64,000 bases of DNA from Schmidtea polychroa (Eukaryota). The notes below the pieces were generated by a model, which was given only the letters and a program-made list of their open reading frames with translations, ran no database searches and was not told where the DNA came from. The translations under genes and the position numbers were made by a program. Positions 1 through 60,439 of this stretch are shown here, in pieces. Positions within the stretch are counted from its first letter, which is position 1. Each line of letters starts with the position of its first letter. The DNA lies in assembly GCA_044892525.1 (NCBI GenBank), contig CM097885.1:25050001-25114000 (forward strand), written 5' to 3'.

Positions 1-758
1 CACTCTCTGTTTCGAACTCCTTTAATGCTCCTTTTCTAACTCTTCAGTTCCTCTTATAATTCCTTTTTCTTGAAATTTGTTCCTCAAATTCCTATTGTCA
101 GTTTCTTCTTCAGTACCTAAGGCTACTACCGATTATCTGAATTTGGAATTTCCTTATATACTCCCATAATCGTTGTAATTGCCCCATTTTTCACCTAATT
201 GGTTTTGACTTCCTTAGTTATCGTTCTCTAATTAGTTATTTCTGTTGACCCTTTTAGTAATTCCTCTTCTTTTGTTTATCTTGTGGTGGGTTACTGGTGG
301 TTGAATGTTTAAGTGCTGTTACCAGCGTAACCCAGAATACAACATTGTTTTCCTCTTGGTACCCGTTGAGCAATCAACGTTGGTACTGTACCAAGGGGTT
401 GAGTACTCGCAAAAAGTGAGCGCGTCAAGCACTGTAATCGTCGAGCACTCTATGGGTTCACGGACGCCGATAGAAGGCACGTGTCCGATTTATTTCGGTC
501 CCTCATCGAGATTGTTTTGCCAAACACCTTTCTGTCGACCATCTTGTTCTAGACAATCGCAAAGTTTAATCACATATTCATTAGACAACAAGAATCATTT
601 ATTTAACCACTACTACATTACAAGGTCTGTTTTACTCAGGAGGGGTCGCACTCTCAAATATTCCTCAGGGTCGTGGATTGGCTTCAAGCTCTTTCGATTT
701 TTCTTGCTCGGCGAGCCAGGCCCTTTTCAATTTGTCTCTTGTATTCCGCCCCAGTCGT

Positions 759-1232
759 TTACGTTTCGGCTTGCTTGCCTGGGTAGGCGGGTATATCTTG
801 GCCAGCTCCACCGGAAGTGGGCGAATCTGCTCGCAGAGTGTCCTGGATGAACCTTTCGTTCAGTTTGCTCTCAAGCGAGCGCACTTGTAGCTTCAGCGCT
901 CGGATTTCGAGTTGATCTTGCTCCGCCTGGGTCTGGAGTTGTGCGATGTGTGTTGTCCGTTTCTTCATCTCAGCCGGACTGAACCAAGTACCTTCGAGTT
1001 CTCGGCACTTGACCTTGAGCTTCACGACCCGACTTCGAAAGTCTTCGGCTTGTTGCTGGGCCTGTTCGCGGTCCTTTCGTAGATTTTCGAGGAATTTGTA
1101 CACTAAATGAAGATAATAATGAAGTTCCATAACTAGCTTCCATATGCGTAAATGTGATTCGATTAATTGTATAGAATTAATAGATGAAGGATAGGGAGGG
1201 TCATCTCGTCCCTGGGGACACCCCATACGCAA
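759..1232 (-). pseudogene. Small coiled-coil protein of the large TG...CA element (frameshifted near its 3' end)
   Basis: Heptad-rich (LQTQAEQDQLEIRALKLQVRSLESKLNE). The homologue at 58199-58647 continues LAKIYPP...RAWLAEQEKSKE, which lies in another frame here. A likely splice acceptor precedes VYKFLENL in both copies. Confidence 0.6.
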
Positions 1233-1427
1233 TAAGACCTATATGCAATGACTAAAAGATGATCTATTATACAACGAATATGCACGATGAACAATAATAT
1301 AAAAGTTTTAATAATAAAAATTTCACAAATTGTCATAATTGCTACAAAAACAGGAAAATCAAACGCAACACAGTATCACTAATTGTATCACTCAAATAAT
1401 TTCGTCCGAATTGTCACTACTGATGAG

Positions 1428-1793
1428 TTAGACCGGGTTCTTACGGGGCCTTCCTCGTTTTCGTGGAGGGGCATCTGCCTCCTTCAGCTCTTCGGGGGTT
1501 ACTCCCTCGGCTTCGGCTCTGAGCTGGAGTTCGAGTCTCCTCAGCCGCATCTGGGACACTTCTACCTCGACGGCCGCTCGATCGCGGGCTTCCCGCAACT
1601 CATTGTTGGTGGGCTCTGTTTTCACCCACGCCGGGGCATCGGGCTCTGGGCCACTTCGGATGACCGGACCGTAATTATCTAGGTCCAACCCCCGGTTCCA
1701 ATCGTGGATCCGGTACCAGATGTACCGGGTCCGGAGCCGCGTGATCATTTGATTGTAGGCTTCATCACCGTTAGAGTCGTCAGAGTGAGACAT
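1428..1793 (-). CDS. 121-aa protein with coiled coil and C-terminal AT-hook (PPRKRGRPRK)
   Basis: ATG at 1793 follows an acceptor-like TTATAG. The RGRP AT-hook motif is present. A same-length (366 nt), indel-free homologue lies at 57524-57889. Confidence 0.7.
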   Translation of the reverse strand: MSHSDDSNGDEAYNQMITRLRTRYIWYRIHDWNRGLDLDNYGPVIRSGPEPDAPAWVKTEPTNNELREARDRAAVEVEVSQMRLRRLELQLRAEAEGVTPEELKEADAPPRKRGRPRKNPV

Positions 1794-3129
1794 TCTATAA
1801 TACAAATCGAAATCAGGACACCTTACACAGCCTGATATGAGTCTTTAAGGGACTCGGACAACGGAGTTCATAATTAAAACCTTGCATTCAAAGTTAATCA
1901 TTTTCGATAGTTGTAACTTGGAAAAAAATTTAATGAAGTTGTATAACTAGAGAAACGACTGCAATTACAACCTGGATTTCCGTAATTAATTTTTAGTTAA
2001 AAAGAAATTCAAAAGTCCTGTGTAAATTTTTAGTAAATCTTACGCTTTAACTAAATATATCCTAAAATTGATAACTAAATATATCCTAAAATTGATTAGC
2101 AATTAACTTTGTTTAATTTAATCATTTAAATTTTCAGAATCTTATTTACCACTAGATGGTAATTTAAAATTTTATACATTAATTTTTCCTACGAATTTAT
2201 GAAATTAGACCATTTTGGTAATTTACCACTAAATTCGGGTACACTGGGGCGATAAGTATTAGTGACGAGCTTAGTTTCTCGTTTACTTACTTCTCCCTCG
2301 GTTGTGCTCGTCGTGAGTGGTATAGTCTTCTCTGGCTAGCTTGGAAGTAATTTATTTATTAACAATAAATTTTCAATTTCAGGTACGTTTGGTGGGAATG
2401 GCCGATTTTAACTTTTGAGAGATTGTCATACGATTCCTTACTGGTACTTTTGTTTTATAGTTTATATCCAATACACATTTGCATTTCGTTAATAATAAAG
2501 TTTAGTATTTTCTTTTGGTAATGCTTTTATATTTCATATAAAGTATGTATTCGTAATTTATTAATAATTTATAAAGTTGTTTTTAGGTATTGCGGTAATC
2601 TGTACTATTTTCTCGATGCTTTACTGGTGGTTCAAGTAAGCCTGATTAATCATTCCAAGTTATTAAGGTAAGTTTATCTAACTCTTAATTTCTGGGGCTA
2701 CTAAGTTGACTAAATTTTTCCGTCAATTGATAACCTTGGGTTAAATTAAATTATTATATACACGTAGACACCTATAATAATCACGATAATAGCAATCATA
2801 ATGAGGCTAATGGTAATAAGACCGCTACTGATAATAATATCAGGAATGCTAATAATAATAATGGTAGAGCTATATTCCTATCAGATTACTATCTATGAGA
2901 GAGTCATTCATAAAAAATTAACAATTTGTATTCTATATATATACTGCAAACATTAAGGTAAATTCATAAACTATAACTTAGAAATAACTTAAACACCTAT
3001 GCGATTCTTAAGTATAATACAAATTTAGAGGTAGTGTATACTTATAAATTATACCTGAAGTTTAATATTAAATTATATTTTATATTTTAAGCATATAATG
3101 CATTTAAAATTAGATATTATATTTTGTGA

Positions 3130-3900
3130 TTTAGATACATTAGACATCTATGAATTATATATTCAAGTATAACATAAATTCATATTTTATAATTTAGGCA
3201 TATTAGACATTTATAAATTATATATTTAGGCATAATATAAAATTATATTTTATAAATTAGGCATATTAGACATTTATAAATTATATATTTAGGCATAATA
3301 TAAGATTATATTTTATAAATTAGGCATATTAGACATTTATAAACTATATATTTAATTATAATATAAAATTATATTTTATAAATTAGGCATATTAGACATT
3401 TATAAATTATATATTTAGGCATAATATAAAATTATATTTTATAAATTAGGCATAAATTATATATTTAGGCATAATATAAAATTATATTTTATAAATTAGG
3501 CATATTAGACATTTATAAATTATATATTTAGGCATAATATAAAATTATATTTTATAAATTAGGCATATTAGACATTTATAAATTATATATTTAGGCATAA
3601 TATAAAATTATATTTTATAAATTAGGCATATTAGACATTTATAAGTTATATATTTAGGCATAATATAAGATTATATTTTATAAATTAGGCATATTAGACA
3701 TTTATAAATTATATATTCAGGCATAATATAATTTATATTTCATAAATTAGGCATATTAGATATTTATAAACTATATTTAAGTATAATATAAAATTATATT
3801 TTCTAATTTAGGACTATTGTACATTTATACATTATATTTTTGAGTATCATATTAAGTTACATTTTACAGTTTAGGTATGTTCTGCATTTACCAATTATAT
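3130..3900. repeat. 63-bp AT-rich tandem repeat inside copy A, decaying further to ~4500
   Basis: TATAAATTAGG recurs at 3251, 3314 and 3377 (period 63). Each unit consists of two related half-units containing TAGGCATA. Confidence 0.85.
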
Positions 3901-6039
3901 CTTTAGGTATAATATAAAGTTATATTTTCTCCTTTCGTGCTATCATACATTTATACATTCTATTTTTAAAGATGTATTTTATTTCTCCTTTCGTGCTATC
4001 ATACATTTATACATTCTATTTTTAAAGATGTATTTTATAATTTAATTTTTATAGATTCTAAATCTAGTTCTATTTTATCATTTAGTACTATTACCCAATC
4101 ATACATTATATTTTTAAGTATAATATAAAGATGCATAATTTAATATTTATAGATTATATTTTTAAGTACAATTTTTTAAGTTATTTTCTTAATTTACGAA
4201 TATTTCGCAATTATAAGTTATATTTTAAGCACAATACTAAGTTATATTTTATAATTTAAGGACAATACATATTTACAAATTATATCTCTGAGAATAATTT
4301 TAGGTTATATTCTATAATTCAGGGATACTACATGTTTATAATTTTTATTTTTAAGGGCCATATCAAGTTATATGTTACCATTGAGGAACGCTATCTATTT
4401 AGAAATCATATAATTCTATTTTGTAAATTAAGATGATTATACATTTAGAGATCATGTGTTATTCAAAATTATATTTTATAGTTCGGCATATTGTACATTT
4501 ACGGATTAATAATTTAATGGTAATATGAGGTTACGTTTCACAATTTACTAACATGAGGCCTTCATGAGCTATTCCTTCCTGATTGTATTCTACGATATAA
4601 TTGATCGAGTCTTTTCATTTTATTATTCACGCTTGTCGAACTTCTTTATGAGGATTAATGCTTTTAATTCCGAGAAAAATCTTTACAATGACACGAAAAT
4701 TCTATGTATCAATGAGGTTCGCCAAACGTTTAGGTATAACTGAGTTCCTTAATGATGTCCAACCGACTGCATTACTAAATTGTAAGATGATGTTTATTTA
4801 AGTCTGAGTTCTACTCAATTATGACCTTAGTGGAAAACTATTGTATGAGATTTTTAATGTTGAGTTTAATTGTGTTCTGCATTCGAACTCGGGAAGAATG
4901 CTTGCTTACACGGCCCCACTGTGACCGCTACGACAAGCCCTACTGTAGTGTTGAGTCGAAACATCACTGTCGACCGATAAATAAATATATGGAGCCATAG
5001 CGGAGGGGTTTTATCGACACAACTCTATGGCAGAACCATGAAGTGGCCGACCTCCGATGACCGAACAACAAAAAAAATATATAAAGGATATTGCATGTCT
5101 GCATGTTTCATTTTAGAAAAATTCATTATCATCAAATGTAGGACTAAATAGAGACGCACTGAGACGCCGCTGATCAGTCGTATTTAAAGAAAAAAAAATT
5201 AAATAAAATAAAAAAGTAGGTCCTAAAAATTGATTTACATTAAAATAATTACATAAGTGATTATTCATAGATAAAACATATATCAAATAAAAAAAAATAC
5301 CTACTATTAATTTTTCGGCAAAATTTTCGTCAACAAAATATTGGCATAAAGTGATTGATTGTGACTGAAACGTCTCAGTATATATACCTATTTTGTACAC
5401 GTGTATGTATTGATGCATTAAAACAAACTCGAATTCTTTTTATTCCAGAATTTTCTATTTCGCGATTTTGATATTTTTAATGGCAATTTTTGTGCCATAA
5501 TTTTTGTTTTTATTTTTAAATTTTTATTTTTTAATTATTTTTCGTTAATTTCACGTCCATGATGGATTTGGAACGGTTCCAGAACATTCTATATTACTTT
5601 TAATTTAATTTTTATTTTAACTGATGTTTTATGAATTTCTTTTTAAGATTTTTTTATTTTTATTACTAATTTATTTATTTTTCTAAATTTTATTGTTTAA
5701 GGTAGCTTTTATGATGGTCATCGCCATTTTTATGGAATGTTCTGGGTTTTTCTGGAATTTTTTACTGTTTTTACCATCTTTTAAGTTATTCGAGTTTGCT
5801 TTTTGTAATTCTATGTTTATTTGGTTATTTTTGAGTTAGATTTTGCATAACTTCTTGCTTTTGTATAATTTTTATTTAATTTCTATGTTTATATTTTTTG
5901 TTGTTTCTCTTTTAATCATTATTGTTTATTTGATGTAATTTTATTATTTAACTATACTTTTTGCTTTTTGCATGCTGTGTACTTACACATTTCAGTCACA
6001 ATCATAAGTTTGGGCCTAGAATTCAGTTCTAGCCCAACA

Positions 6040-6580: not shown

Positions 6581-6868
6581 TGGTGGGTTACAAATGATTA
6601 AATATTTTGCTCTTTATTGTTGTTACCAGCGTAACCCATGATACAACATTGTTTTACGCCTTGATACCCGTTGAGTAATCAACGTTGGTACTGTATCAAG
6701 TGGGTGAGTACTCGCAAAAAGTGAGCGCACTAACGGCACTATAATTGTCGGGTACTCTATGGGTCCACGGACTACCGTTAAAAGGTATGTGTCCGATTTA
6801 TACTGGTCCCTTTGCTAGATTTTGTTCTCACATGTATTTGCACATTTACCTACATAAGCATACACATC

Positions 6869-6871
<3 letters not shown>

Positions 6872-6935
<64 letters not shown>
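6872..6935. repeat. (TA)n microsatellite
   Basis: Direct reading. Confidence 0.95.
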
Positions 6936-6943
<8 letters not shown>

Positions 6944-6953
6944 ATCTCATTAA

Positions 6954-7110
6954 CCCATTCGCCGCGTCACAAATTTATCACACTTTCGCCAGGAGCGGCT
7001 TCGGTTTTTTTAAATGAATTAGCTGTTTTTAAAGTAAATCAAAATTATTTATGATTAATATCTTTACAAAATGTTTCTGGTTTTTTTGGGGCCAAGACGC
7101 AGTCAATGTG
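6954..7110. mobile_element. piggyBac-like MITE (157 bp)
   Basis: TTAA on both sides (6950-6953, 7111-7114). Imperfect TIR: CCCATTCGCCGCGTC versus reverse complement CACATTGACTGCGTC. Confidence 0.5.
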
Positions 7111-16894: not shown

Positions 16895-17594
16895 AGTAGT
16901 GTGTATATATACCCAACAAACACAGCCCTCCCAACAAAAACATACCTCCATTACGCTTAAACCATTAGAAAAACAACATAAAACCTATGTTTTTATAGTA
17001 TTTTAACCCCATATTTTAAACAACAACCACCCTTAATCTTTAAAGCCTCAAACTCAAAAGCTTCAAACTAAAAAGAGAATAGAAAAGAAAATGGCATTAT
17101 GAAAAAGTTAGAGGGCTATTTGGGATAGGGCTATATACACACTACTTTTGATCGCAATCAAACTCCGGAGTTGATCTTTATCAGATTATTGATTTTAAAT
17201 TATATAAATTAAAAAATAAATGAAAAATAGTAAAACTGCTCTGAGGGGACAGTGGTATTTTTTTTTCCACTGTCCCCTCAACAGTTTTTTTGATCCGGAT
17301 CATTTCAACCTCTTTCGTTTATCAAATCTCTTCTAATATACAAGCTGGCCAGACTCATACATCAGAATCAATCCGATAATAGCAGCACACCTTATTATTC
17401 GCTTCTCGCTCGAATACGATTTCATCGGCGTTTTAAGCGTGCTGCTCGAAAGTACAAATGAATTCGAAAGTGAATCCGAAAGAGGTCCGAAAACAACTGA
17501 GAAATAAATGTGCACATTAAAGAATCGATCCGGGGGTGTTCGAAAGACAGGTGGCGATAATTACCGGTTCGCCACCATCACCCGTTTCAATAAT
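16895..17594 (+). repeat. Polinton left terminal inverted repeat region
   Basis: AGTAGTGTGTATATA terminus. The inner 248 bp are mirrored at 30030-30277 with 4 mismatches. Hairpins at ~17241-17280 and ~17550-17576. Confidence 0.75.
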
Positions 17595-17766
17595 TTTTTT
17601 TTCATATTTATGTTTAAAAATAAAATAATTAATAAAATAAATAAAATAAATAAAATAAATAAAATAAAATAAAAATAAATAAAATAAAATAAAAATAAAT
17701 AAAATAAAATATAAATCTAAGATACCCACACTATTATTTTCAAATTTTTAATATTATTTTATGTTG

Positions 17767-17849
17767 AAAAAAAACTAACCACAGTTAGGATTTGAACCAC
17801 CATCCATTTGAACCACTGTGCCAGTCTAGCCCACTGCGCTATCTAGGTT
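17767..17849 (-). ncRNA. Candidate Pol III (tRNA-like or VA-RNA-like) small RNA gene in the Polinton
   Basis: Minus strand: A box TAGCGCAGTGG at about +8, B box GGTTCAAATCC (plus a second GTGGTTCAAAT copy), short AACC/GGTT terminal stem and T8 terminator. It is a GC-richer island in AT-rich intergenic DNA. Confidence 0.6.
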
Positions 17850-17947
17850 TGGATTTTTGTTATTTTTTATACTGTCACATTATGAAAATAAATATAAAAA
17901 CATAAAAAATCAAAACAGGATATCCAATAAAAAATTTTTTTCTAAAA

Positions 17948-20900
17948 ATGAATTGTAATATTTGTAATAAAGTTTTTAAAAATAAAACTGGATTAATTTC
18001 TCACTTAAAATCGAAAGCTCATTTATTAAAAGAAAACAATCTTAATGATACAAATTCAAAAGTTTGTCCTAAATGTAAAGGAAGATTTCTACATTCTGGA
18101 TATAATAAACATTTTGAAAATTGTATCGGGAAAAATAGAGAAATATTTACATGTTCTCACTGTAACTTTTCAACAAAAGTAAATTTCTATTATTTAGAAC
18201 ATATAAAAGAATGTAAAAATAAAAAACAAAATTCTGACGATGAGGAATGTCATTCAGAAGGAGAACCTGATCATGTTGAAAGAGAAAAATATAACTGGGA
18301 TGATTTTAATCATGTAGATGAATTTCAATTAGAAATTAATGGACCTATAACTCCTGGAGAATATATAAATAAAAATAAAAAAAATATTAAAAATTCTTTC
18401 ACTGAAGCTTTAAAAAATTATAAACCGACAAGGTATAATGTTATAAAATATAAAATTATAATCAAAGCAAAATACTGGCGAGGAGCAGAAGAAAAGACAA
18501 CACCCTTAGATGTTGAAATTGGAATACCTTTTAAATATTTATTTTCAACTAAAAGATTTGATAAAACCATCAAAGAAATAATTCAAGCAGTAGAAGCAAA
18601 ACAAGAAGAGGTTGAAAATGAATTAGGAGATTCAAACTTAGTATTCAACTCTTTCCAAACTTTAGTGATTGATTATTGGAGAGGATTACCACCTAATCTT
18701 AAATCTTATATTCCTACACCCTTTAAATCTAAAAATGTTATAAACGTACAGAATAATGATAACAAATGTTTTGTCTGGTCAATACTTGCACATTTACACC
18801 CTCAAGAATCAAACCCTCAAAGAGTTTCAAAATACAAACAATATGAAAATGAATTAATATTTCCCAAAGGATTCAAACATCCAATGAAACTAGAAGACAT
18901 TCCAAAATTTGAAAGTTTAAATAATCTTAAAATTAATATTTATGAACGTGTTAAAGGGAAACATGTTAATAGCAGAGAAATTATTCCAATTTATATTTCA
19001 GATTATGAAGTTAGAGATAACGAACCCCAGGATAACACTAGGGAGATATATCTTTTAATCTTGGAACAACAAAATAATCAACATTATGTTTTAATAAAAA
19101 ACTTTCAAGCTTTTACATCACCAGAGAATCCAACTAGTGGAGGAGGAACATGTAAAAGATGTCTTCATTATTCAACAACTAAAAACTCTATGATTAAACA
19201 TACAAGATTTTGTGAAAAAGATGATCCAGCTTTAATTAAAATGCCTAATAATCCCAAGATGTATTTTAAAAACTTTTCAAATTTACTACAAACAGTAGGA
19301 GTGCTTTATGGGGACTTTGAATCTATAAATCGTAAACAAGATTTGGTTAAACAATATTTAAAAATAATAGAAAAAAATAAACTCATGGATTCCTGGAACT
19401 CCTCAGGAGAGAAGATGAAACCAGAGAGGATGAAAGCCTTTCTAAGAAAAAGGAATAAACCTAATAGTGTTAAAAAAACTAAACAATTACCATCTGCTTA
19501 TAAATTATTATTTAAAAGTAATTATCCTGAACTCATAGAATCTAGAGAATATACATTTCGAGGAATTTCAGAAACAGAAGTCTTGAATCATTTTACTAAA
19601 ATTATAAATGATCTAGAACATGAAATATTTAAAGTATTAAAAACAAACTATCCTCAAAATATTTCTAATCAACAACAACAAGAATATGAAAACACTTCCA
19701 ACTGTTGGATGTGTAAACAACCATTTGAAGAGTCTCCGAATATAAAAGTCCTCGATCATGATCATTTAAAAAAGGAAAATAATTATCGAGGAGCAGCTCA
19801 TAAAAATTGTAATCTTAATTATCATACTCCTAAATTTGTACCTGTTATATTTCATAATCTTTTTGGTTATGACATACATCTATTTATTAAACATTTAGCA
19901 GCAAATGCTAAAAACTCTTTCAAAGTTATAGGACTTACAAAGGAAAAATATAAATCAGTTGAATATGGAAAATTAAAATTTATAGACTCGTTAAACTTTC
20001 TTCAAATGTCTCTAGATGGAATAGCTAAAACAATGAAACCAGAAGATTTTAAAATCACTCGAGAATTCTTAGAAAAAAATAATATTCCTCTAGAAGAATA
20101 TCCTACATGTTTAGCAAAAGGAATATATCCTTATGACTATGTTGACTCGTTTGAAAGATATAATGAAACAAGTCTTCCTAGCCAAGAAGATTTCTATTCA
20201 CAACTTCAAAAAAATCATATTACAAATCAAGAATATTCTCGAGCAAATAAAATGTGGGAATTATTCAAGTGTAAAACTTTAGGAGAATATACAAGTATGT
20301 ATTTATCCTTGGATGTTTATATTCTAGCAGATTGCTTTGAAGAATTTACAAAATCTTTTGTTCTTAAACCTTACAATTATATAACAGCACCCTCTTTAGC
20401 TTGGGATACTTTATTATATACCATTTGGACTTCAAATATAGAAGAAGCTGATAAAATTATAGATCTTTTAACTAACCTCGATATGTTTAATCTAATTAAA
20501 ACAAACATTAGAGGAGGAGTCTCTTCAGTAATGGGGAATAGAGAAATAAAAGCTAGAAATGCAATAACTACTAGCAGAATGCTTTCAAAGACCTCTGATC
20601 CATATATAAAAATTAACAATGAGGAATTAAAAGAAATATTAGAAACAATGAAAAATCCTATATTTATACTTTATATAGATGCAACAGCTTTATATTCAGG
20701 AATTATGACTCAATATTTACCAATGGGTGATTTCATTGAAATAGAATCATCAAAAGAACTTATAAAAGAAATACTTTCAACACCTAAAGATTCTCCAATA
20801 GGTTACTTTGTAGAATGTGACTTATTATATCCAGATGATATAAAATCAGGAACAAGATATTTCCCATTAGCTCCTGTAAGAAGAAAGATTGATATCAACG

Positions 20901-22264
20901 AACTTTCTGAATGGCAAATCTCACAAGATAAACCCCCAACAATGAAACTTCTTTGTGATCAAACAGATCGAAGGTTTTATCTTTGTCACTATAGACTCCT
21001 CCAATTTTATCTTTCACGAGGTATGATATTAAAAAAAGTTCATAGTGTCATAAGATTTAAACAGAGGCCATTCATGAAAGCTTTTATCGAGGAGAACATT
21101 AGATGTCGAAACATTGCAAAAAGAGAAGGTAACCTTTTTAAAGATAATAATTATAAACTTTTAAACAATTCAGTCTTTGGGAAGACAATGGAGAATGTTG
21201 ATAAATATACTCATATTGAACTCCTAACTAATACTGCCAAAGATATTAAGCGTTATAATCGTATGCTAGGAAAGCCTACATTTAAAAACGCACAAGTATT
21301 TTCTGAAAATCTTACTGCAGTAGAACTAAAGAATTTTGATAAAACATACAACAAACCAATATTTATAGGGTTTTCAATTTTAGAACTTTCAAAATTACAA
21401 ATGTATGAAACATATTATAACATCTTACAACCTATATATGGTTCTAATATATCAATGCATGCAATGGATACAGATACAATGTTTTTAACAATAAGAACTC
21501 ATGATTTACAAAGAGATATAGCTGAAAATCCTATACTTTCAAATTTAATAAATTCAACTGGAGAATTATTTTCATTTAAAGATGAAAAACCTTTTACTCC
21601 TATAGAAAATGGAATATTTATTCGTGCTAAACAATATTCATACGAAACATTTAAAAACCCTGAATTTATAACCCGAGAAATTATATTTAAAACCCCAGAA
21701 AAAGAGGAAATTATTTCATTTAAATATCCTATATTCCCTAAAGGACCAGAGGGACAAGAAGAAAAACCTGTAAAGGATAACAGATGTAAAGGAATACAGA
21801 AATCCGTTGCAAAGAATCTTTCTCATCAAGATTATATAGATACATTGAATCCAAATCATAAAGATAAAATTGATGAAGTGCATCAGATTAAAAGCGAAAA
21901 CCATGATATTCACTTGATAGAATCTCAAAAAGTATCATTATCAAATTATGATGATAAGAGATTCATCCTAAGTGATTTAAAGACAACTCTTCCTATAGGA
22001 AATAATTTAATACCGATAATAAAAAATCTAGAAAAGTTGAATAAGTTATATGATACAAAAAATACTGATCTTGATATTTATAATGTTGAAATCATTTATC
22101 CCGAGAGAGAAATCGAGAAGCCTTTATATTCTCAAGTTTTTAATCCTATATGTTTAGAACTTAAATATTTTAATACTGATCCTGAATATATAAAAGGTCT
22201 AAGTGATAAAGAATTTAAAGATCATAAATTAATGATTCAAAGGTTGGCTTTCAACGATATTTAA
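17948..22264 (+). CDS. Protein-primed family B DNA polymerase with N-terminal zinc fingers and an embedded endonuclease VII-like (CxxC...DHDH...H..CN) domain
   Basis: ExoI YGDFES, ExoII FHNLFGYD, ExoIII YLSLDV, PolA YIDATALYS, PolB KLLNNSVFGK, PolC MDTDT and C-terminal YDDKRFI. Intact 1438-aa ORF. Confidence 0.95.
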   Translation: MNCNICNKVFKNKTGLISHLKSKAHLLKENNLNDTNSKVCPKCKGRFLHSGYNKHFENCIGKNREIFTCSHCNFSTKVNFYYLEHIKECKNKKQNSDDEECHSEGEPDHVEREKYNWDDFNHVDEFQLEINGPITPGEYINKNKKNIKNSFTEALKNYKPTRYNVIKYKIIIKAKYWRGAEEKTTPLDVEIGIPFKYLFSTKRFDKTIKEIIQAVEAKQEEVENELGDSNLVFNSFQTLVIDYWRGLPPNLKSYIPTPFKSKNVINVQNNDNKCFVWSILAHLHPQESNPQRVSKYKQYENELIFPKGFKHPMKLEDIPKFESLNNLKINIYERVKGKHVNSREIIPIYISDYEVRDNEPQDNTREIYLLILEQQNNQHYVLIKNFQAFTSPENPTSGGGTCKRCLHYSTTKNSMIKHTRFCEKDDPALIKMPNNPKMYFKNFSNLLQTVGVLYGDFESINRKQDLVKQYLKIIEKNKLMDSWNSSGEKMKPERMKAFLRKRNKPNSVKKTKQLPSAYKLLFKSNYPELIESREYTFRGISETEVLNHFTKIINDLEHEIFKVLKTNYPQNISNQQQQEYENTSNCWMCKQPFEESPNIKVLDHDHLKKENNYRGAAHKNCNLNYHTPKFVPVIFHNLFGYDIHLFIKHLAANAKNSFKVIGLTKEKYKSVEYGKLKFIDSLNFLQMSLDGIAKTMKPEDFKITREFLEKNNIPLEEYPTCLAKGIYPYDYVDSFERYNETSLPSQEDFYSQLQKNHITNQEYSRANKMWELFKCKTLGEYTSMYLSLDVYILADCFEEFTKSFVLKPYNYITAPSLAWDTLLYTIWTSNIEEADKIIDLLTNLDMFNLIKTNIRGGVSSVMGNREIKARNAITTSRMLSKTSDPYIKINNEELKEILETMKNPIFILYIDATALYSGIMTQYLPMGDFIEIESSKELIKEILSTPKDSPIGYFVECDLLYPDDIKSGTRYFPLAPVRRKIDINELSEWQISQDKPPTMKLLCDQTDRRFYLCHYRLLQFYLSRGMILKKVHSVIRFKQRPFMKAFIEENIRCRNIAKREGNLFKDNNYKLLNNSVFGKTMENVDKYTHIELLTNTAKDIKRYNRMLGKPTFKNAQVFSENLTAVELKNFDKTYNKPIFIGFSILELSKLQMYETYYNILQPIYGSNISMHAMDTDTMFLTIRTHDLQRDIAENPILSNLINSTGELFSFKDEKPFTPIENGIFIRAKQYSYETFKNPEFITREIIFKTPEKEEIISFKYPIFPKGPEGQEEKPVKDNRCKGIQKSVAKNLSHQDYIDTLNPNHKDKIDEVHQIKSENHDIHLIESQKVSLSNYDDKRFILSDLKTTLPIGNNLIPIIKNLEKLNKLYDTKNTDLDIYNVEIIYPEREIEKPLYSQVFNPICLELKYFNTDPEYIKGLSDKEFKDHKLMIQRLAFNDI

Positions 22265-22342
22265 TTTTTTAATAATAAAATGTCGACAATTAATTTAAGC
22301 AACTATAGCAACCTGATCTACTTTTTTAAAAATACACCCATT

Positions 22343-22951
22343 TTATAAATAAGAATTCTTTAACCATTTCTCCCGTTTAATTTTTTTAGAATATTCATTA
22401 GTTATAACATTAGCACTTTTTAATCTATTAATATTATTTTTAATATCTTGTATTATTTGATTTGATTTCATTATTTCATCATCAGTTAAGATTCCATCTT
22501 CCAAAGCTTTTAATTGAAATAAAAATAATTTAGAGATTCCTAATTCTATTGACAAACAAACTTCACGATATAAACCTTTCTTTTTTGAAGTATAAGATAA
22601 TGAAACTATTTCAGTTAAGAAACCATCAGCTACAGAAATACTTCCAAGTATTACTGGCGCAAGTGTTAAAACTGGTAAAGTTATAGGTAAAATAACTGTT
22701 AATATTGCAGATGCAAATCCTAAAGAATAACCTATAACTTTTAAAACTGTATTCCCTTTATTCCATCTATTTTTAATTTTTTTATAATGCTTTAATAAAT
22801 CTTGTAAATGTAACGTTTCTGATTTAAATTCTTTTACTCTCATAATTTCAAGTTCTGTGGGAGCTGAAGGTCCCGAAGGTCCCGAAGGTTTGGGGGAATA
22901 ATATCCTGATGACAATTCTGGGTAAATATTTTCTTCTCTTACTTCTTCCAT
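22343..22951 (-). CDS. Polinton hypothetical membrane protein
   Basis: Intact ORF in the gene cassette with a central hydrophobic hairpin (VIGYSLGFASAILTVILPITLPVLTLAPVILGSISV). Confidence 0.7.
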   Translation of the reverse strand: MEEVREENIYPELSSGYYSPKPSGPSGPSAPTELEIMRVKEFKSETLHLQDLLKHYKKIKNRWNKGNTVLKVIGYSLGFASAILTVILPITLPVLTLAPVILGSISVADGFLTEIVSLSYTSKKKGLYREVCLSIELGISKLFLFQLKALEDGILTDDEIMKSNQIIQDIKNNINRLKSANVITNEYSKKIKREKWLKNSYL

Positions 22952-22959
22952 TTTAATAA

Positions 22960-23937
22960 TTAAAAAAATAAGATTTTATTATCTGGTACCAATACTCGGA
23001 TATCATAAGAGACTCTTGTTGAGAGAATGTCTTTATACAATTCCATCAATGCTTTACGAACTTCATCAACATCAACCTTTTTTTCATAAAATATTAAATC
23101 TATATATTGTACAAGTGTGCTTTTAAAAATAATATTCTTACTTTTAACTTTATGTGTTTTATGTGAATCAGTTTTATCATGCCAATATCCATGTGTTAAA
23201 TCATAACCACTTATTATAACATCACCCTTTTCAAACTTACTATTATAATCACATTTCACAAACCATTTCATTGTTTCACCATCATCATTAAATAAAAAGA
23301 AATAAGGATCAATAATCTTTACAACCATAAAAACACTCCATTCTTTACTATTTGTTGTTATTAAAGTTGGTTCTATAAAATGTTTATATGTATGGGGTAA
23401 TAATGTTTTATTCTGTTCTAATTCAGCAGCTCTTTTTCTAATACTATGTGTGGTGTTAATGTGTGTTGTATGAGATTCTAAATTTGAAAGTCTTTTATTA
23501 AATGATGTAATCATCTCATTTATTATATTATATATTGTATTAAATTTAGTATTCATAATTTGTTTATCTTTAGAATTTAATATGCTAGTATTTAACTTTA
23601 CAACTTGTTCAGTTAACAGACTTTGTAACTTGTCAAATTTATCATTAAATCGTTGTTCGATATTATTAAGCTTTGATTCCATTGAATCCATTTTTGTTGT
23701 TAATGAACTTTCAATTCTTGTTGTTGTTAAATCAGTATAATTTTTATTAGCAGCATCACCTTCATCAATTGGTAAAGATAAATCTTTTATCTTGTGTCCA
23801 TTTAAATTTAAATCTCCTTTCATTGAATCACCTCTTTCATTAATATATTTATTTTCTGTTAAAGTTAATATTTCTTCTGTATTAAACCCTGTTTTTATTG
23901 TTCCACCACCTCTATTACAAGGAATATAAGAACTCAT
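22960..23937 (-). CDS. Putative fibre/spike-like virion protein
   Basis: GDSMKGDLNLNGHKIKDLSLPIDEGDAANKNY resembles the DAAxKxYVD neck motif of trimeric fibre/adhesin proteins. It is followed by a coiled coil and a beta-rich C-terminus. Confidence 0.55.
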   Translation of the reverse strand: MSSYIPCNRGGGTIKTGFNTEEILTLTENKYINERGDSMKGDLNLNGHKIKDLSLPIDEGDAANKNYTDLTTTRIESSLTTKMDSMESKLNNIEQRFNDKFDKLQSLLTEQVVKLNTSILNSKDKQIMNTKFNTIYNIINEMITSFNKRLSNLESHTTHINTTHSIRKRAAELEQNKTLLPHTYKHFIEPTLITTNSKEWSVFMVVKIIDPYFFLFNDDGETMKWFVKCDYNSKFEKGDVIISGYDLTHGYWHDKTDSHKTHKVKSKNIIFKSTLVQYIDLIFYEKKVDVDEVRKALMELYKDILSTRVSYDIRVLVPDNKILFF

Positions 23938-23961
23938 TTATTAATAATTTAAAATGAATCT

Positions 23962-24706
23962 TCAAACCTGTTTCAAATGTAAATACATTGAAATCTCTTC
24001 TCCATTAAAATCAATCAATTCTCCTTCTTGATTAAGAATTTTAAAATTAATATCCATTATATATTTTCTACATAAAGGTAAATAATTTGGAGGATTCATT
24101 CTTTCAACTATTTTATATCCCATAGGAACTGTGTTTGAGGGAAAGGAATATAAAACATTTATAAGAACCTGTTATACAATCGCAATGAATATTTATTGTG
24201 TTTGTATTTATTATTTTTATAATATTTTCTGATGTAACTTCAGGTGTGGTATAATGGTTTTGTGTAAATCCTAAAATTGTTCTAAAGAAACTATTATTTT
24301 GAAAACGAATTCCTATATTCTCTAAAGTCATTATACATTTTGAAGTTGGTAAATCCATTTTAATTTTAATGACTCCATTTGTTTTTTTAGAAAGTATATT
24401 ATTTAAATCTTTTATCTCATAAGCTCCGGGTTCGATTGTTATTATAATCTTATCTGTAGATTTTGGGCTTATATAATAAAATATGTTATTATCTTTAGTT
24501 ATATTAAAAATAGTATTATAAGCACAAAACCATAATAGTCCTAATTCATAATTTAAATTTTGATCTAATTTAATTGAATCTTGAAAGTTTATAGTAAAGT
24601 CTGATTCTTTTGAATTTATAGATAAAGTTCTTGAATATTTATCTGACATTATGTTTACCATTTTTTTAAAATTATCTTCTGGAGGGTTGCGAAGCTCCAT
24701 TTTCAT
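23962..24706 (-). pseudogene. Polinton minor capsid (penton) protein, frameshifted
   Basis: IFNITKDNN, IEPGAYEIKDLN, ILGF and INIHCDCITGSY. The conserved C-terminus NVLYSF...GYKIVE...YLP...NQEGELIDFNGEEISMYLHLKQV continues in another frame to a stop at 23962. Confidence 0.85.
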
Positions 24707-25125
24707 AGTAGAGATTTTAAATCATTATAAATTTCTTGGATTAAGGAAGTGAAACCTTCTCCTTTGGATTTATTCAATCTATACAAAACATATAAGCTTA
24801 AAATACCACATATTTTAGTATTATTAGGTTGAACTTGTAAAGAATTAAAAGTGTAGTCCGAGAGATAGTCTTCAACTTCTTTAGTGGGTTTAATCCCAAA
24901 AGAATCAAAGTATATAGATTTATTATATATACAAACCCAATGAGATCCTTTTTCATTTGAATTTTGATAATTGATTATTATATTATTCTCTTTCAGACTC
25001 GACAATTCATCATTCATTAATATTTTTATTTTTAAATTTAAATAATCTGCATAATCTTTTAAATCAAAATTTGTTTTTGCATTTATTCCAAATGTTATTA
25101 AAAAATCTAATATTGAAGGAGTCAT
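24703..25125 (-). CDS. Adenain-like cysteine maturation protease
   Basis: GSHWVC, YFDSFG and Q....CG provide the His/Asp/Gln/Cys catalytic set. Confidence 0.9.
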   Translation of the reverse strand: MTPSILDFLITFGINAKTNFDLKDYADYLNLKIKILMNDELSSLKENNIIINYQNSNEKGSHWVCIYNKSIYFDSFGIKPTKEVEDYLSDYTFNSLQVQPNNTKICGILSLYVLYRLNKSKGEGFTSLIQEIYNDLKSLL

Positions 25126-25997
25126 TTTATATACTTATTAAATTTATCTTTTGAAATTATTCCTTGTTTTAACAAATCTTTAGAAATCTTTAAAATATCA
25201 TAATCTAAATTATTATGTCCTGCTTTTTTAGCTGCTAATAGTTTTCTTAATTCAATAAAAAGGTTGATTGGGTTTGGTTTAACCCTTATACCATCACCTT
25301 CTTTAACAACATAACCCTTTTCATTTCTATCTAAATATTTCTTTAAATCTTGAATGTGTTTTGCTTTTGAACTAGCTTTTATTGATCTTATAAAATTTAA
25401 ATATTTTTTAATTTCTTCAACATCATCTGAAGGATATCCACAAAGTAATCTATAAAAATCATCTGTAAATTCAAAGTCTAAATATTCATTATTATAAACA
25501 TTTTGTGAATGAATATGTGATTTATTTTCTGGAGTTGTATATAAAGTAAAGTTTTGTTTATTGATTGTTATTATTGAATATCCTTCAGAATTAATATGAA
25601 ATGTGGGTTTAATTGAATCACTTAAACCTTCTCTAATTTTAGGATTAACTTTAAGAGGTTTTGTTTTTAAAAACATTTCTTCTTCTTCCACATTAGAGGT
25701 TCTTCTACGTTTTCTTTGATTTCTTTCAGAATGACTTTCAGGATGATTTTCAGGATGATTTTCAGTGGATTCTTTCTCCCACTCCAATTCTTTTATTTTT
25801 TGTTTTTTATCTTCCAACTCTTTAAATTTTGCTTGCTCATTTAATCCTTTTATAGCTTTAATTGTTGGTCCTTGTTGTTTTTGGATTACCTCATTTAATA
25901 TTATAGATTCAGCATGTTGAGTTGTATCTTTTTTATTATACTTGTTTTGTTTTGATTGTAATTTTTTTAAAAGTGCTAATCTTTCTTCATATACCAT
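25122..25997 (-). CDS. Conserved Polinton hypothetical protein
   Basis: C-terminal P..L...L..LLAAKKAGHNN....I...LL..GII motif of the kind seen in Polinton core ORFs. Confidence 0.65.
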   Translation of the reverse strand: MVYEERLALLKKLQSKQNKYNKKDTTQHAESIILNEVIQKQQGPTIKAIKGLNEQAKFKELEDKKQKIKELEWEKESTENHPENHPESHSERNQRKRRRTSNVEEEEMFLKTKPLKVNPKIREGLSDSIKPTFHINSEGYSIITINKQNFTLYTTPENKSHIHSQNVYNNEYLDFEFTDDFYRLLCGYPSDDVEEIKKYLNFIRSIKASSKAKHIQDLKKYLDRNEKGYVVKEGDGIRVKPNPINLFIELRKLLAAKKAGHNNLDYDILKISKDLLKQGIISKDKFNKYIK

Positions 25998-26019
25998 TTT
26001 AATGGTATCAAAAATGGTA

Positions 26020-26613
26020 TCATGGTTCCTTCCAAGGTTTTAAATATAATCCTTTACCATTTTTAGTTTTACAAAGGCATCCATTCTTTAAAGATTTACA
26101 CATTTTTTTAAAATCATCTTTATCTTTTGAAGATAAAGATTCAGATGATGAAATTAGATTTTTTAAAAAATCATTTAAACCGCGGCCTTTATAAGGATCA
26201 AGATAGAGACCCTTTCCAACGGAGGAACTCCCCTGAGACTTTTGACCTTCGGACACTTTCTGATATGGATTAAGATAGAGACCTTTTTCAACGGACTTTT
26301 GACCTTCAGACACTCCCTTCTTTTTCATTGAATCGATTTCAGTTTGTAGTTTTTCTTTTTCTAGGTCTGTCTTTTGAGATTCTTTAGCTTTTTGAACTGT
26401 AGTTGCAATTCCTCCAGCTATTCCAGCAGCACCTGATAGTCCGGCAATGATTGCAGGTATTAAAGCAGCTAATGGAAGAATGCCACCTTCTTTAATCTTC
26501 GCTCTAATTTGTTCTTTTACATGTTTTCCAATAAAATATTTTTTACCATCAATTACTACTGATTTATTTTTATTTGAATTTATTAATTCTTGCAAAGATT
26601 CTTCAGTTGTCAT
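26020..26613 (-). CDS. Polinton core or membrane-lytic protein with an adenovirus pX-like segment
   Basis: KEGG|ILPLAALIPAIIAGLSGAAGIAGG hydrophobic segment after a GG cleavage-like site, and three KGLYLxP(Y/W) repeats. Confidence 0.65.
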   Translation of the reverse strand: MTTEESLQELINSNKNKSVVIDGKKYFIGKHVKEQIRAKIKEGGILPLAALIPAIIAGLSGAAGIAGGIATTVQKAKESQKTDLEKEKLQTEIDSMKKKGVSEGQKSVEKGLYLNPYQKVSEGQKSQGSSSVGKGLYLDPYKGRGLNDFLKNLISSSESLSSKDKDDFKKMCKSLKNGCLCKTKNGKGLYLKPWKEP

Positions 26614-26628
26614 TTTTAAATAAATAAA

Positions 26629-27426
26629 ATGGATATTTGGAAACCAATTTTAAATAGACATAAATCTAAATTTAATAATAAAGTATTTCCTGATAATTTT
26701 AGATTATTAATTGTTGGTTCTTCTGGATGTGGAAAGAATGTACTTGTTTTGAAAATGTTGCTTGAAGATGGTTTTTTAGATTATAATAATTTAATCTTTT
26801 ACTCTACAACCATAAATCAACCAGAATTACAACTTTTGAAATGTGGATTTGAAAATAAATTAACTAAAAAAGCAATAATTGATATTTTTAAAAATCAACA
26901 TAGATGTCCTGAAGAAGTTTTTCAACCTTGTGATATGGTTGATTGGTATAAGGAAAAGATTTTAGAATCAGATATTAGTAATAAAAATGATTACATTTCT
27001 GAAAATTCTGCAGTCCATTCTGGGATTAAAGTTTTATTCTCTAATAAACCTGAAGATGTTTTACATTGTGATTTACTTCCTAAAGATAAAAAAAATCTAG
27101 TTATATTTGATGATGTTGTTAACATGAAAAATCAAGAGATTCAAAAGAGTTACTTTACAAGAGGAAGACATAATAATTGTAATGTTATTTATATATCTCA
27201 AACTTATTATGCTTTAGATAAAAACTGTATAAGAAATAATTCCAATTGTTTTATATTTTTTAAATTAGATCGCCGTGATAAGAATATGATTTATAATGAT
27301 TTATTTTCAAATGTTGAACCTGATAAGAATATGTTTGATATGTTTGTTGATAATCATTGGAGAGAAAAATATAATTATATTTATTTGGATAGAGAAGAAG
27401 CTGAAATATGGAAAAGTTTATTTTAG
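26629..27426 (+). CDS. A32-like (FtsK-HerA) genome packaging ATPase
   Basis: Walker A GSSGCGK(N), Walker B LVIFDD and FTRGRH...ISQ motif. The Walker A Thr/Ser is replaced by Asn. Confidence 0.9.
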   Translation: MDIWKPILNRHKSKFNNKVFPDNFRLLIVGSSGCGKNVLVLKMLLEDGFLDYNNLIFYSTTINQPELQLLKCGFENKLTKKAIIDIFKNQHRCPEEVFQPCDMVDWYKEKILESDISNKNDYISENSAVHSGIKVLFSNKPEDVLHCDLLPKDKKNLVIFDDVVNMKNQEIQKSYFTRGRHNNCNVIYISQTYYALDKNCIRNNSNCFIFFKLDRRDKNMIYNDLFSNVEPDKNMFDMFVDNHWREKYNYIYLDREEAEIWKSLF

Positions 27427-28790
27427 AAATCTGTTTTCTGTAACTCATTATTATAAAATCTACCTAATATTTTTTCATTATTTAAATCAATGATGCTATA
27501 TGTTATTGGAGTTGTATAATGTATTTTATTTATAATAAAAATTTCATTTGTCCGTTTTGCTGTGAATCCTTTTTCAAATTTATTTTTATATTTAAATATT
27601 CTTACTCGGTCACCAATTTTAAACTTTGGTTTTTCAATAACATCATTTTCAATATTTACCACTTTAATGGTTTCAGGATTCATGGAAGCATTTAAAGGTG
27701 TTGATTTTGTAGAACTATGTACATCATTATTATATTCATTTACAATCTTTTGTAACAACTCATTGTTCCATTTTTGTTTTCCAATAGCAGTAAAATATTT
27801 CCACATTTTATTTTTTAATGTTCTATTTAATCTTTCAACCACAACTGCTTTTCCTTCGTTTTCTGTTGAATATAATTTAATATCATTTTCATTTAAAAAC
27901 TTTGTAAAAACTTTGTTATAAAATTCTGTTCCTTTATCACACCATAAATATTTTGGAATTCTTTGATGTTCTTCAAATATATTTTCAAATGCTTCTGTAA
28001 TAGAATATCCTGTTTTATTTTCTAAACACCTTGCAAAGGCAAATCTTGTATATAAATCTATTACAGTTAAAATTATTTTATATTTTTCAGGGTCTGATGA
28101 TTTGGTTGGCATAAAGACTAAATCTGCAGACCATGTTTGATCTTTTTCATGTACTTGAACTTTTAAATATTTTTATTTTTTCAAAATTCATGGTGTAATT
28201 CGTTGGCATATTTTATTTGTGATTCTGTTGGGGTTAATAAACTAGTCTTGGATATATTCTCGAGGGATCTTTCAGCATCTGCTTGTTCAATAATCTTTTT
28301 ATTAGCAACATCTTTTGCCATCCTTGGTAAACTAGCACCTATGAAAATCTTACCTTTCATTGCTAATTTAACTAGAGCTCTTTGAATCTTTTCTTGGGTT
28401 GATGGATTTTGGATACTATTTAAATCATGTATTAAATTAACATCTGCAACATGCCTATCTCTAAGATCTTCTGAATTGTAAGCAATATCATGTTTTAAAG
28501 CTGCTTGGTCGATTCTATTTATTGGTTCTTCTCCTTGTTTGGGATTATTATTTTCATCTAATCTAATATCTAATCTTGTTCCTGGTCCGGTATAGTTGTG
28601 TTTAAATAAATGTCTTTCACCTGGATATTTTTCTGTAGTAAAAGGTTTTAATATTGAAGATGTCACTTTTGAAGATTGTAGGTCGCCTCCGGCTCGTGGA
28701 ATCATGTCGCCTCCTATATGTTTTTTAGTTTTTAGATGACTTGCTTTATGATGTCTTGTAACTTGACAATTACAACTTTTACATCTCCAA
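27423..28790 (-). pseudogene. Zinc finger + parvovirus-type PLA2 + retroviral-like integrase fusion, disrupted
   Basis: PLA2 motifs HNYTGPG and IDQAALKHDIAY (28181-28705). ANELH then TGA and a 1-nt frameshift, then WSADL, VIDLY, WCDKGTEF, VERLNRTLK and KFKIGDRVRI (27423-28112). An upstream in-frame CKSC...HLKTKKH is also present. Confidence 0.85.
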
Positions 28791-28828
28791 TAGAGACATT
28801 TTAAAATGTTAAAATATCAGGGATTATA

Positions 28829-30030: not shown

Positions 30031-30277
30031 TTATTGAAACAGGTGATGGTGGCGAACCGGTAATTATCGCCACCTGTCTTTCGAACACCCCCGGATCGAT
30101 TCTTTAATGTGCACATTTATTTCACAGTTGTTTTCGGACCTCTTTCGGATTCACTTTCGAATTCATTTGTACTTTCGAGCAGCACGCTTAAAACGCCGAT
30201 GAAATCGTATTCGAGTGAGAAGCGAATAATAAGGTGTGCTGCTATTATCGGATTGATTCTGATGTATGAGTTTGGCC
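30030..30277 (-). repeat. Remnant of the Polinton right TIR
   Basis: Reverse complement of 17347-17594. It joins the Gypsy RT through GGCCA microhomology. Confidence 0.9.
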
Positions 30278-38143: not shown

Positions 38144-38213
<70 letters not shown>

Positions 38214-38218
<5 letters not shown>

Positions 38219-39270: not shown

Positions 39271-39277
39271 TATATTC

Positions 39278-39295
39278 TGGTGAGCCCGACGTGAT
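39278..39295 (+). promoter_or_regulatory. Primer-binding site, tRNA-Trp type
   Basis: TGGTGAGCCCGACGTGAT differs at one position from the classical tRNA-Trp PBS TGGTGACCCCGACGTGAT. Confidence 0.8.
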
Positions 39296-39551
39296 TGAAA
39301 GTCGGAGGAAAAAATTATTGGAAGTTAGTGAAAAAGAAATTATTAAAAAAATTTAGTACCGACGCGATAGAGAGTCGGCTGAGAATCATTGAAAGTAGTG
39401 AAAATTTGTGAAAATTGTGCTAACGAGATTATTAAAGGCTATTATTGGGAGATTTGAAAGAAGTTGAAAAGTAATTTTAAATTATTGTTTAACGTTTGAA
39501 GTTTAGCTCAAAGTGAACCGATACAACCTCAGAAGCCAGAAACAAGTCCAA

Positions 39552-49516: not shown

Positions 49517-49694
49517 ATTGTGATCTGCATGAATAGTGTAAAAAAAATATATATTACATTTATATTAACAATGTGCATGTTTTATAAGTACCATAGGATG
49601 AACTGTGTAATTTGTTTGAGATTCGAAGTGAGGTGTTGATGCTTTGCGAATAAAGAGTGATACAAAAAAAATGACTATCATTTAATTTCAGAGA

Positions 49695-52365: not shown

Positions 52366-52483
52366 TACGATAATTGGAGTAGGATTGTGATAAATAATAA
52401 TAATATTGATAAAATAATAATATTGATAATAATAATGGTGATGATAGTGGTAATAACAGCAATAATTATAACAATATATAATG

Positions 52484-52534
<51 letters not shown>

Positions 52535-55623: not shown

Positions 55624-55668
<45 letters not shown>

Positions 55669-58647: not shown

Positions 58648-60439
58648 AACATACCTTGTAATATAGCAGTGATTAAATAAATGATTCTTGTTGTCTAATG
58701 CATATGTGATCAAACTTTGTGATGGTCCAGGATCAGACGGTGGGTAGAGAGGCGTTTGGGAAAACAATCTCGATGAGGGACCGAAATAAATCGGACACGT
58801 GCCTTCAATCGGCGTCCGTGAACCCATAGAGTGCTCGACAATTATAGTGCTCTTAAGGCGCTCACTTTTTGCGAGTACTCAACCCCTTGGTACAGTACCA
58901 ACGTTGATTGCTCAACGGGTACCAAGAGGAAAACAATGTTGTATTCTGGGTTACGCTGGTAACAGCACGTAAACATTCAACCACCTGTAACCCACCAATA
59001 TAAACAAAGTCAAATAACCTTTGACCTCGTGTTCATCTGCTATCTAACTGTTAACTAGTAACATTTTATTACTAACAGCAAATTACATACATACACACAT
59101 AATGATCATTCACACTTACCATTTACTAGCACACTGAAATACACAGTGGTAACGGTAATATTACAATTTCTACTTTGTTAGTTGCTATGTCTTCTAAATT
59201 TAAACATGTTCCAAAATATTAAAAATTTTCAAAATCAGAAAAAATGCCATTTATCAATGCCTATTTGAATCGCTCTAACATAGCATTCGAAGAAGCACTG
59301 GGAAAAAATCAGAAAGACTTTTCAAAGTCGATGACTCGCCAATCAAACGACAAAGAATTATTCAGAGATCAGACACCCACCATCAAGGCTTCAATGACCA
59401 GACCGAAGATATGTGCACCTCTAAGGGTCAGCGTGGATCGACTTACCACCATCAGCAATATGACCCTGCAACATCAGATAGCTGCGAAGTCCAGACAGAT
59501 GATCTCGAGACTCGGGATTAATTTCTGATTCAAGGATGCACGATATCCCAGAAATCACCGGACCCCAACAACAAATACAATTCTTTTAGAATTACTATTA
59601 ATAATGAATCTTTCATATCCTTTGCATGACAATTATTTAAAATTTTAAATACATTTTTACTAATCCAGGCATAAAATAAAATTAAATGACCACCACGTGG
59701 TCTAAATAGTAATATCAAAACACTTAAGTTAATTTACTGACTAGTTTGTCATTAGCTTATTCAAATTCTATGAGTCTTATTAAATTTCTTGTGAAATCCT
59801 TGACCGATTTCTATGAAAATTTAAAATTATAGCAAACAAAGTACGGTGATTCATATTCTACTAATAATAAATGTTAAAAATTAATTTTTGAAAAAATAAA
59901 AATTCACTCATCCATAGATTTAAACCCCTCAACTTTCAAAATCATAAATATCAAAACGAAAACTTGACCACTGAATCACCGGTCTGATAAAAAGAACATC
60001 TCATTTTATTATACATACATTTATTTTATTACAATCAGAGGGTGGAGCCTCTGAGGCCTAAGAGACGGTGTCGACGTGGGCTCCAGGAATGTAGAGATTA
60101 CTGGAAAGAATCAAGAGATGAATTGGTATTGTCTCTAGTAAGGTTGTGTCGAGTATACCTCAGGGACTTGCATTGGTTGGAGTCAAAAGGCCTCCATTTT
60201 GTGGATCTTTTATGTAGCTTTGAAACTCATTCTCTTAACTTGCTTATTTCAGTTGTGGCATTGTCGTTAGAATGGTTAGTCGCCTGAGTTTTGTGGTAAT
60301 TTACATGTTCATACTATAAAAAGAAAGCGATCAAAACTTTAGTACATCAAATGGTTAATTAAATAATAATGGCATAAATTACTCACACTGAAGCAAAATT
60401 CAAATTATCAAGTATTAAACGAATTTATTTATAAGTTAA

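Follow-up and report, generated by a model that had tools for sequence, protein, structure and literature searches.

The terminus of the long terminal repeat (LTR) of Burro-type giant Gypsy retroelements in Schmidtea polychroa carries a conserved block which is the 3' (U5) end of the LTR, and comparison of its sequences supports the view that it holds one selected, covarying fold, kept by paired base changes at the terminus of the element. Selection of this fold on the sense strand of the element (the minus strand of the window, i.e. of the whole 64,000-nt stretch analysed) is favoured, not proven. We consider that the domain probably serves, in the genomic RNA of the element, as a leader signal acting in cis which helps to set up packaging and reverse transcription from the tRNA primer. 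The initial annotation of the window missed this context, namely the U5 end of a Burro-type LTR adjoining a tRNA-Pro primer site.

Three copies of the domain are present in the window, at the positions first given for them (284-535, 6581-6812 and 58770-58997), and they align as described. Copy 1 (284..503, minus strand) forms the last 220 nt of its LTR, which on the sense strand ends in ...CCACCA at 284; the LTR is a 5.8-kb Burro-type solo LTR (284..6039, minus strand) flanked by a 4-bp target duplication, CTTG. Copy 2 (6581..6812, minus strand), which belongs to another subfamily, is a short remnant of an LTR end, beyond which lies a TA microsatellite. Copy 3 (58770..58997, plus strand) terminates a second solo LTR (36030-58997; flanks GTAT/ATAT), which is split by a 17-kb Gypsy element. 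Positions 284 and 58997 thus belong to two separate solo LTRs of opposite orientation and do not delimit a single element.

A first look at the genome (781 Mb) gave 2,463 candidate relatives of the domain, and about 3,400 copies are present. Exact TGGTGGGTTAC ends occur 3,433 times genome-wide versus 73 times for the reversed control, and the domain was present at 82 of 90 such ends sampled. The outer boundary of the domain is exact, since copies share a common terminus and their unrelated flanks diverge immediately outside TGG. Inward, homology between subfamilies is lost 200-250 nt from the terminus (1,934 of 3,568 pairwise alignments among 78 copies). Conservation is confined to about 230 nt at the LTR end. 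Of the extent proposed initially for copy 1, 284-535, the limit at 284 is thus the exact terminus, but the conserved block ends near 503-510, most pairs ceasing to align 200-250 nt in.

A few oddities were met among the copies. Short remnants of the copy 2 type (window 6581-7010; L062 and L046) are alike beyond the domain, and two of them also beyond the microsatellite, as if carried along with another repeat. The copy at L036:4950-5181 is fused directly to a coding fragment which, from its translation, we take to be HSP70-like. The solo LTR of copy 1 contains an array of 63-nt tandem repeats (3024-4491), and its far end (6005-6039) also starts with a hairpin, TTGGGC-TAGAA ... TTCTAG-GCCCAA, which mirrors the terminal stem of the U5 end.

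Many domain copies occur as same-strand pairs about 30.4 kb apart. In one such pair the LTRs are 4.9 kb long, 99% identical and flanked by ATTA/ATTA. The LTRs of these elements are long and directly repeated, begin with TG, end with CA and are accompanied by a short target duplication; the long ORFs of the element examined are all on the minus strand. They encode a polyprotein running from Gag (with its knuckle) through MATH, a fusion glycoprotein, protease, RT and RNase H to integrase, and also specify ankyrin, TRAF and BIR domains. Because this layout matches the description of Burro/GYPSM1 in the accessible part of PMC6431247, the element was classified as a Burro-type giant Gypsy element. 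Burro/GYPSM1 are giant Gypsy-like LTR retrotransposons of planarians (PMC6431247, PMC8532177), and the likeness extends to a size above 30 kb, thousands of copies, an in-frame fusion glycoprotein between Gag and protease, and the MATH, ankyrin and BIR domains. As far as the accessible parts of these accounts go, they cover coding domains and expression and mention no RNA fold in the LTR.

On the sense strand, the LTR end (...CCACCA) is followed by a spacer of 7-8 nt and then by 23 nt that match the 3' terminus of the genome's own tRNA-Pro(UGG). It is because complete copies end 8 nt before this primer site that the domain was identified as the U5 end. Exact tRNA-Pro primer sites number 268 genome-wide; among 30 that were sampled (all Pro by design), 14 adjoin family A and 16 adjoin three other LTR ends. 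The 7-8 nt from LTR end to primer site is found across the whole lineage (L034:4192-4200; L204; L200; window 39270-39277) and is longer than the few bases that are usual. In the one element inspected for it, a clear purine tract before the 3' LTR was not seen. A long tandem array with a 475-nt period (G000:C1:130901009 onward, L073) carries tRNA-Pro(UGG) genes; pattern matches number 1,555 genome-wide.

The LTR of copy 1 also bears two small ORFs on the minus strand, both without Pfam match: one of 157 aa (759..1232) and one of 125 aa (1428..1805), the basic end of which, RKRGRPRK, is presumably AT-hook-like or nuclear-signal-like. An AATAAA at 598..603 (minus strand), about 95 nt upstream of the domain, is a candidate poly(A) signal; a second AATAAA lies at 489-494 (minus strand). 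Among 56 family-A copies, AATAAA was found in 9 and 22 for the two 25-nt bins located 75-125 nt upstream of the loop, versus 0-3 in most other bins and 7 in the first bin. Contigs ending in poly(T), from one run guessed to be RNA and in which contigs are strandless, end near the far LTR end, at an A-rich tract, so that the AATAAA enrichment and the poly(T) ends point to different R/U5 borders.

One family-B copy is of particular use for what follows. It is 15 kb long, with 1.66-kb LTRs that are 99.3% identical and a Gag ORF (G000:C1:5988501-6009000; L343-L346); no RT or fusion glycoprotein match was found in the three stretches fetched, and this gag-only relative is apparently non-autonomous. 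It retains both the fold and the Pro primer site. Several other family-B pairs have the same spacing of about 13.6-14.2 kb.

The fold, given here in the coordinates of copy 1 (all features on the minus strand), starts with a terminal multi-branch subdomain (287..334), in which P1 (287-294/327-334) closes the hairpin P2 (315-318/323-326). The loop of P2 (319-322) reads GUAA on the sense strand. Among 123 family-A copies, pair 293/328 of P1 is A-T in 100 and G-C in 11, and pair 316/325 of P2 is C-G in 96 and T-A in 18. The outermost bases of this subdomain are predicted to be also the integrase attachment end. Next comes a long hairpin (352..398) made of P3 (352-362/388-398) and P4 (364-369/374-379), separated by an 8x1 internal loop (380-387) which reads AGUACCAA on the sense strand. 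In family A, P3 displays double changes at 355/395, 357/393, 359/391 and 360/390 (same 123 copies). A second long hairpin (401..450) consists of P5 (401-409/442-450, extended by 410-412/438-440) and P6 (419-423/429-433), with double changes at 402/449, 403/448, 405/446, 408/443, 411/439, 422/430 and 423/429. Pair 421/431 is C-A on the plus strand in 109 of the 123 family-A copies, and U-G on the sense strand in 26 of 30 representatives across families; there the U-G at 431/421 completes a continuous P6 helix. The last hairpin, P8/P9 (461..487; double changes at 466/478 and 467/477 in family A), carries a 7-nt loop, UUCUAUC, at 469-475. Two unpaired words of the sense strand, AGUWCCAA and UUCUAWC, are invariant: the latter was present in all 16 copies of other families that were found by the primer site alone, and genome-wide 51 matches carry a change at the first C of CCAA, against about 3,438 matches of the pattern describing the frame of the fold.

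Several of the changes reported at first were recovered as described in the three copies of the window: the double change from CTTGGTAC/GTACCAAG to CTTGATAC/GTATCAAG, the loop change between GCAA and GTAA, and the change of an inner stem from GCC/GGC to ACC/GGT. The element CTCGC-AAAAA-GTGAG fared less well. It is indeed invariant in these three copies, but it is broken at 408/418 in at least 21 of 123 copies, and as a hairpin it is a competitor of P5/P6, lacks any common double change and was not seen in the alignments of the other families. Two other local proposals were dropped along the way: kissing of the P2 and P4 loops, for which covariation is absent at 321/371, and GAGC as a 4-nt bulge or as a pseudoknot with 456-459, which the continuous P6 of the sense strand replaces.

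Support within family A was evaluated on an alignment of 123 unique copies, kept from 165 full-length ones among 193 hits, from which a structure of nine helices and 56 pairs was drawn by hand. In it 92.6% of 6,810 cells pair, and cells changed on both sides number 297 versus 94 in shuffles, which ignore the relatedness of the copies. Sliding the register lowered the paired fraction to 30-38%, a control that is partly circular because the structure was drawn by hand from the same sequences. Fourteen pairs show a second Watson-Crick type in at least 9 of the 123 copies. On the other hand, an R-scape-like all-pairs covariation test against a tree null gave no significant pair within family A (best E = 12), and RNAalifold recovered only 11 pairs from the 123 decayed copies, so that family A alone is suggestive.

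The stronger argument comes from the other families. Sixteen LTR ends that do not belong to family A, found without any structural pattern, all have the same core with the stems rewritten. The frame pattern gave 3,438 matches versus 0 for its control and exposed further families; eight LTR families in all share the layout and spacing of the hairpins despite differing stem sequences. From 201 pattern matches, 40 representatives were taken and 30 were kept, ten family-A rows being excluded; the pattern-found rows are by construction selected for the invariant words. With one copy for each of the eight families, 113 of 120 stem positions of P3 and P4 were paired, and when whole 3' arms were swapped only 1 of 20,000 swaps did as well. 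Over the 30 representatives, 96.1% of 507 cells pair at the 17 well-aligned pairs, and double-change cells number 76 versus 28.8. The eight families are not deep independent replicates, because the RT identity between A and C is 90%.

The earlier proposal of a selected RNA structure holds in so far as compensatory changes exceed chance, but its argument from GNRA loops does not, since the P4 loop flips strand between families. In family A, 97 of 123 copies have a GNRA sequence in the P4 loop (370-373) when read on the plus strand, and 115 of 123 have one in the P2 loop when read on the minus strand. Of 10 copies from families C, D and G, 9 have GNRA at P4 on the minus strand; on the plus strand the P4 loop is of the TTGC/TTAC type in C and D and six-membered in B. 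The loops do not by themselves decide the strand. Family A gives a mixed signal in other respects too, with common G-T pairs on the plus strand at 354/396, 356/394, 407/444, 458/498, 416/435 and in P1a, and plus-strand totals of 323 G-T versus 245 A-C.

Folding on the sense strand is favoured because of the wobble pairs and the energies. Across families, the sense-strand cells comprise 650 Watson-Crick, 76 G-U, 28 A-C and 53 other combinations. The z-score was lower on the sense strand in 24 of 30 representatives; the signal was absent on both strands in families F, G and H. Minimum free energies in families C/D were of -99/-103 for sense versus -78/-72 for antisense, i.e. sense was better by 21-32 kcal/mol. 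The initial annotation had placed the structure on the strand antisense to the small ORFs, whereas the evidence across families favours the sense strand, which is the strand of the small ORFs and of gag-pol.

As to the role of the domain, transcription from the 5' LTR places U5 ahead of the primer site, and the transcript would thus carry the domain directly ahead of that site. A fold formed on this sense RNA, in which AGUWCCAA and UUCUAWC putatively touch the primer tRNA or else Gag/RT, would constitute a leader signal for priming and packaging. Retention of the fold and the Pro site by the gag-only copy is indirectly consistent with a signal needed in cis for both processes. The position and general role are of the expected kind. 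If the loops do not grip the tRNA, the domain still marks, within sharp bounds, a signal that neither autonomous nor gag-only copies can afford to lose.

In a more specific form of the leader reading, which we regard as unlikely, the domain would dock the primer tRNA-Pro through several contacts at once. The anticodon loop (U33-UGG) would be recognised by the CCAA of the internal loop, the acceptor stem would contact GCUCA, and the D-loop would be caught by the T-loop-like hairpin once the T-arm of the primer melts on the 23-nt site. CCAA can pair with U33-U34-G35-G36 of tRNA-Pro and is kept in 26 of 30 representatives, but it also matches the UUGG that starts the primer site, and the GCU of GCUCA is paired in P6. 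The constancy of UUCUAWC in the 16 independently found copies is consistent with docking, as is the absence of the motif at the LTR ends of Trp-primed relatives (about 50% RT identity), of which the copies retrieved are near-identical. Precedent exists in HIV, the A-rich loop of which is complementary to the anticodon of tRNA-Lys3 (PMC3185550, accessible part). However, 4-mers shared among families and complementary to tRNA-Pro number 4 versus 5.1 in shuffles, and 5-mers 1 versus 0.71; nor did the genome yield any family that combines the fold with another primer. Because of this negative shuffle test and of the lack of a fold with another primer, the leader signal is preferred and docking is treated as a sub-case of it only.

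Quite unlikely is the bolder proposal that the domain belongs to a new class of tRNA-handling RNA, a core of about 150 nt forming a T-box-like clamp, which would have arisen in a retroelement of animals and would grip tRNA-Pro at anticodon and elbow. The CCAA loop would hold the anticodon and the T-loop mimic would dock the freed D-loop, selecting and positioning the primer. If the loops do grip the primer tRNA, they would form a compact new tRNA-recognition fold. As in T-box riboswitches, a codon-like triplet plus A lies in an internal loop; unlike in them, neither a loop-E partner strand nor paired T-loops were identified. The consensus of the tRNA T-loop has U at position 1, a purine at 4, A at 5 and a pyrimidine at 7; UUCUAWC, a 7-nt loop of the UUC-N-A-N-Y type, fits at positions 1, 5 and 7 but has U instead of a purine at position 4. 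A resemblance of TGGWACT on the plus strand to the T-box antiterminator was discarded, as it is on the wrong strand; its W is also, we presume, unfit for the tRNA-Pro discriminator.

Selection on both strands, with the sense RNA and the strong-stop DNA copy (plus strand) each folding, the latter during strand transfer, appears improbable. Most of the common changes go from one Watson-Crick pair to another, G-T pairs are frequent on both plus and minus strands in family A, and helix probabilities computed with DNA parameters are nearly equal on the two strands. Equal DNA energies are, however, expected for any inverted repeat, and the wobble bias across families and the C/D energies are one-sided.

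The idea put forward initially, that of a structured RNA on the antisense strand or a ribozyme that cleaves itself, is very improbable. The plus-strand GNRA character of P4 in most family-A copies, several G-T pairs on that strand and invariant loops that look tertiary speak for it. Against it, the P4 loop loses that character in families B, C and D, the near-invariant 421/431 is a C-A mismatch on the plus strand, Rfam gave no ribozyme match in the domain, and nothing in the analysis pointed to self-cleavage. A hammerhead was rejected: judged by its known consensus, CTGATGA is there in one subfamily only and without a GAAA partner. By-eye resemblances to HDV-like ribozymes, group II domain V, xrRNA and the Pol III A/B box, each relative to its consensus, were likewise dropped.

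Hardly tenable is the absence of any selected fold, with integrase-end conservation and template-switch repair of inverted repeats mimicking covariation: the terminal 11 nt do resemble the other LTR end and the tree-null test in family A was not significant, but between families the stems are rewritten with no change in loops, bulges or spacing over about 150 nt, strand-biased wobble requires single-strand folding, and the arm-swap result largely refutes it.

The leader signal which we prefer was compared with known systems. The U5 stem, A-rich loop and primer activation signal of HIV-1/HIV-2 (PMC3185550, accessible part) likewise make up a folded RNA region immediately before the primer site, and contacts between retroviral U5 and the primer tRNA are documented there. 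The exposed loop complementary to the primer anticodon is common to HIV-1/HIV-2 leaders and the present domain, where the tRNA contact is predicted only. In contrast to the HIV-1/HIV-2 U5/PBS region as given in that source, the planarian domain extends over about 230-280 nt in three long subdomains, and it is further set apart by its T-loop-like hairpin, the spacer of 7-8 nt and the primer match of 23 nt; sequence or Rfam similarity to retroviral U5/PBS leaders is lacking. The 5' cis-acting region of Ty1 (PMC3592414) is similar in being a folded 5' region that organises priming and packaging, but the Ty1 elements probed in the accessible part of that study belong to the GAG region that surrounds the primer site, whereas the planarian block is wholly within the LTR end.

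The initial statement that the structure could be assigned to no known family agrees with Rfam 15, in which no hit within the domain was found at E<=1 in the window or at E<=2 in 8 loci of other families. Hits outside the domain consisted of microsatellite-driven miRNA hits and one weak snoRNA hit. Outside collections gave 0 matches in viral contigs and 1 in metagenomes, located in an unrelated bacterial-looking coding stretch and taken as chance. A literature search found no description of the fold; the original genome paper and its supplements, outside that search, may mention it. For a few retroviruses and for the Ty elements of yeast, good maps of cis-acting RNA structure exist; for these giant animal Gypsy elements the literature search yielded none. 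The thousands of copies in eight families offer a ready covariation model, and the invariant loops are testable on a short RNA.

Other elements were noted in the window. The 17-kb Gypsy element (38211-55628) has 1,065-nt LTRs that are 99.8% identical, and one ORF of 3,215 aa with a fusion glycoprotein between Gag and protease. Its primer site, 7 nt from the LTR end, is presumably that of tRNA-Trp, and it is without the motifs of the fold. A Polinton/Maverick-like element with 248-nt inverted ends (17347-30277) encodes a protein-primed DNA polymerase B, an A32 ATPase, an integrase, a double jelly-roll protein and a phospholipase A2-like protein; it is apparently inserted in a Gypsy element that has 118-nt repeats at its two boundaries (14525 and 32335). 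Finally, an ORF of 448 aa at 62638-63984 contains a methyltransferase domain (PF13679).
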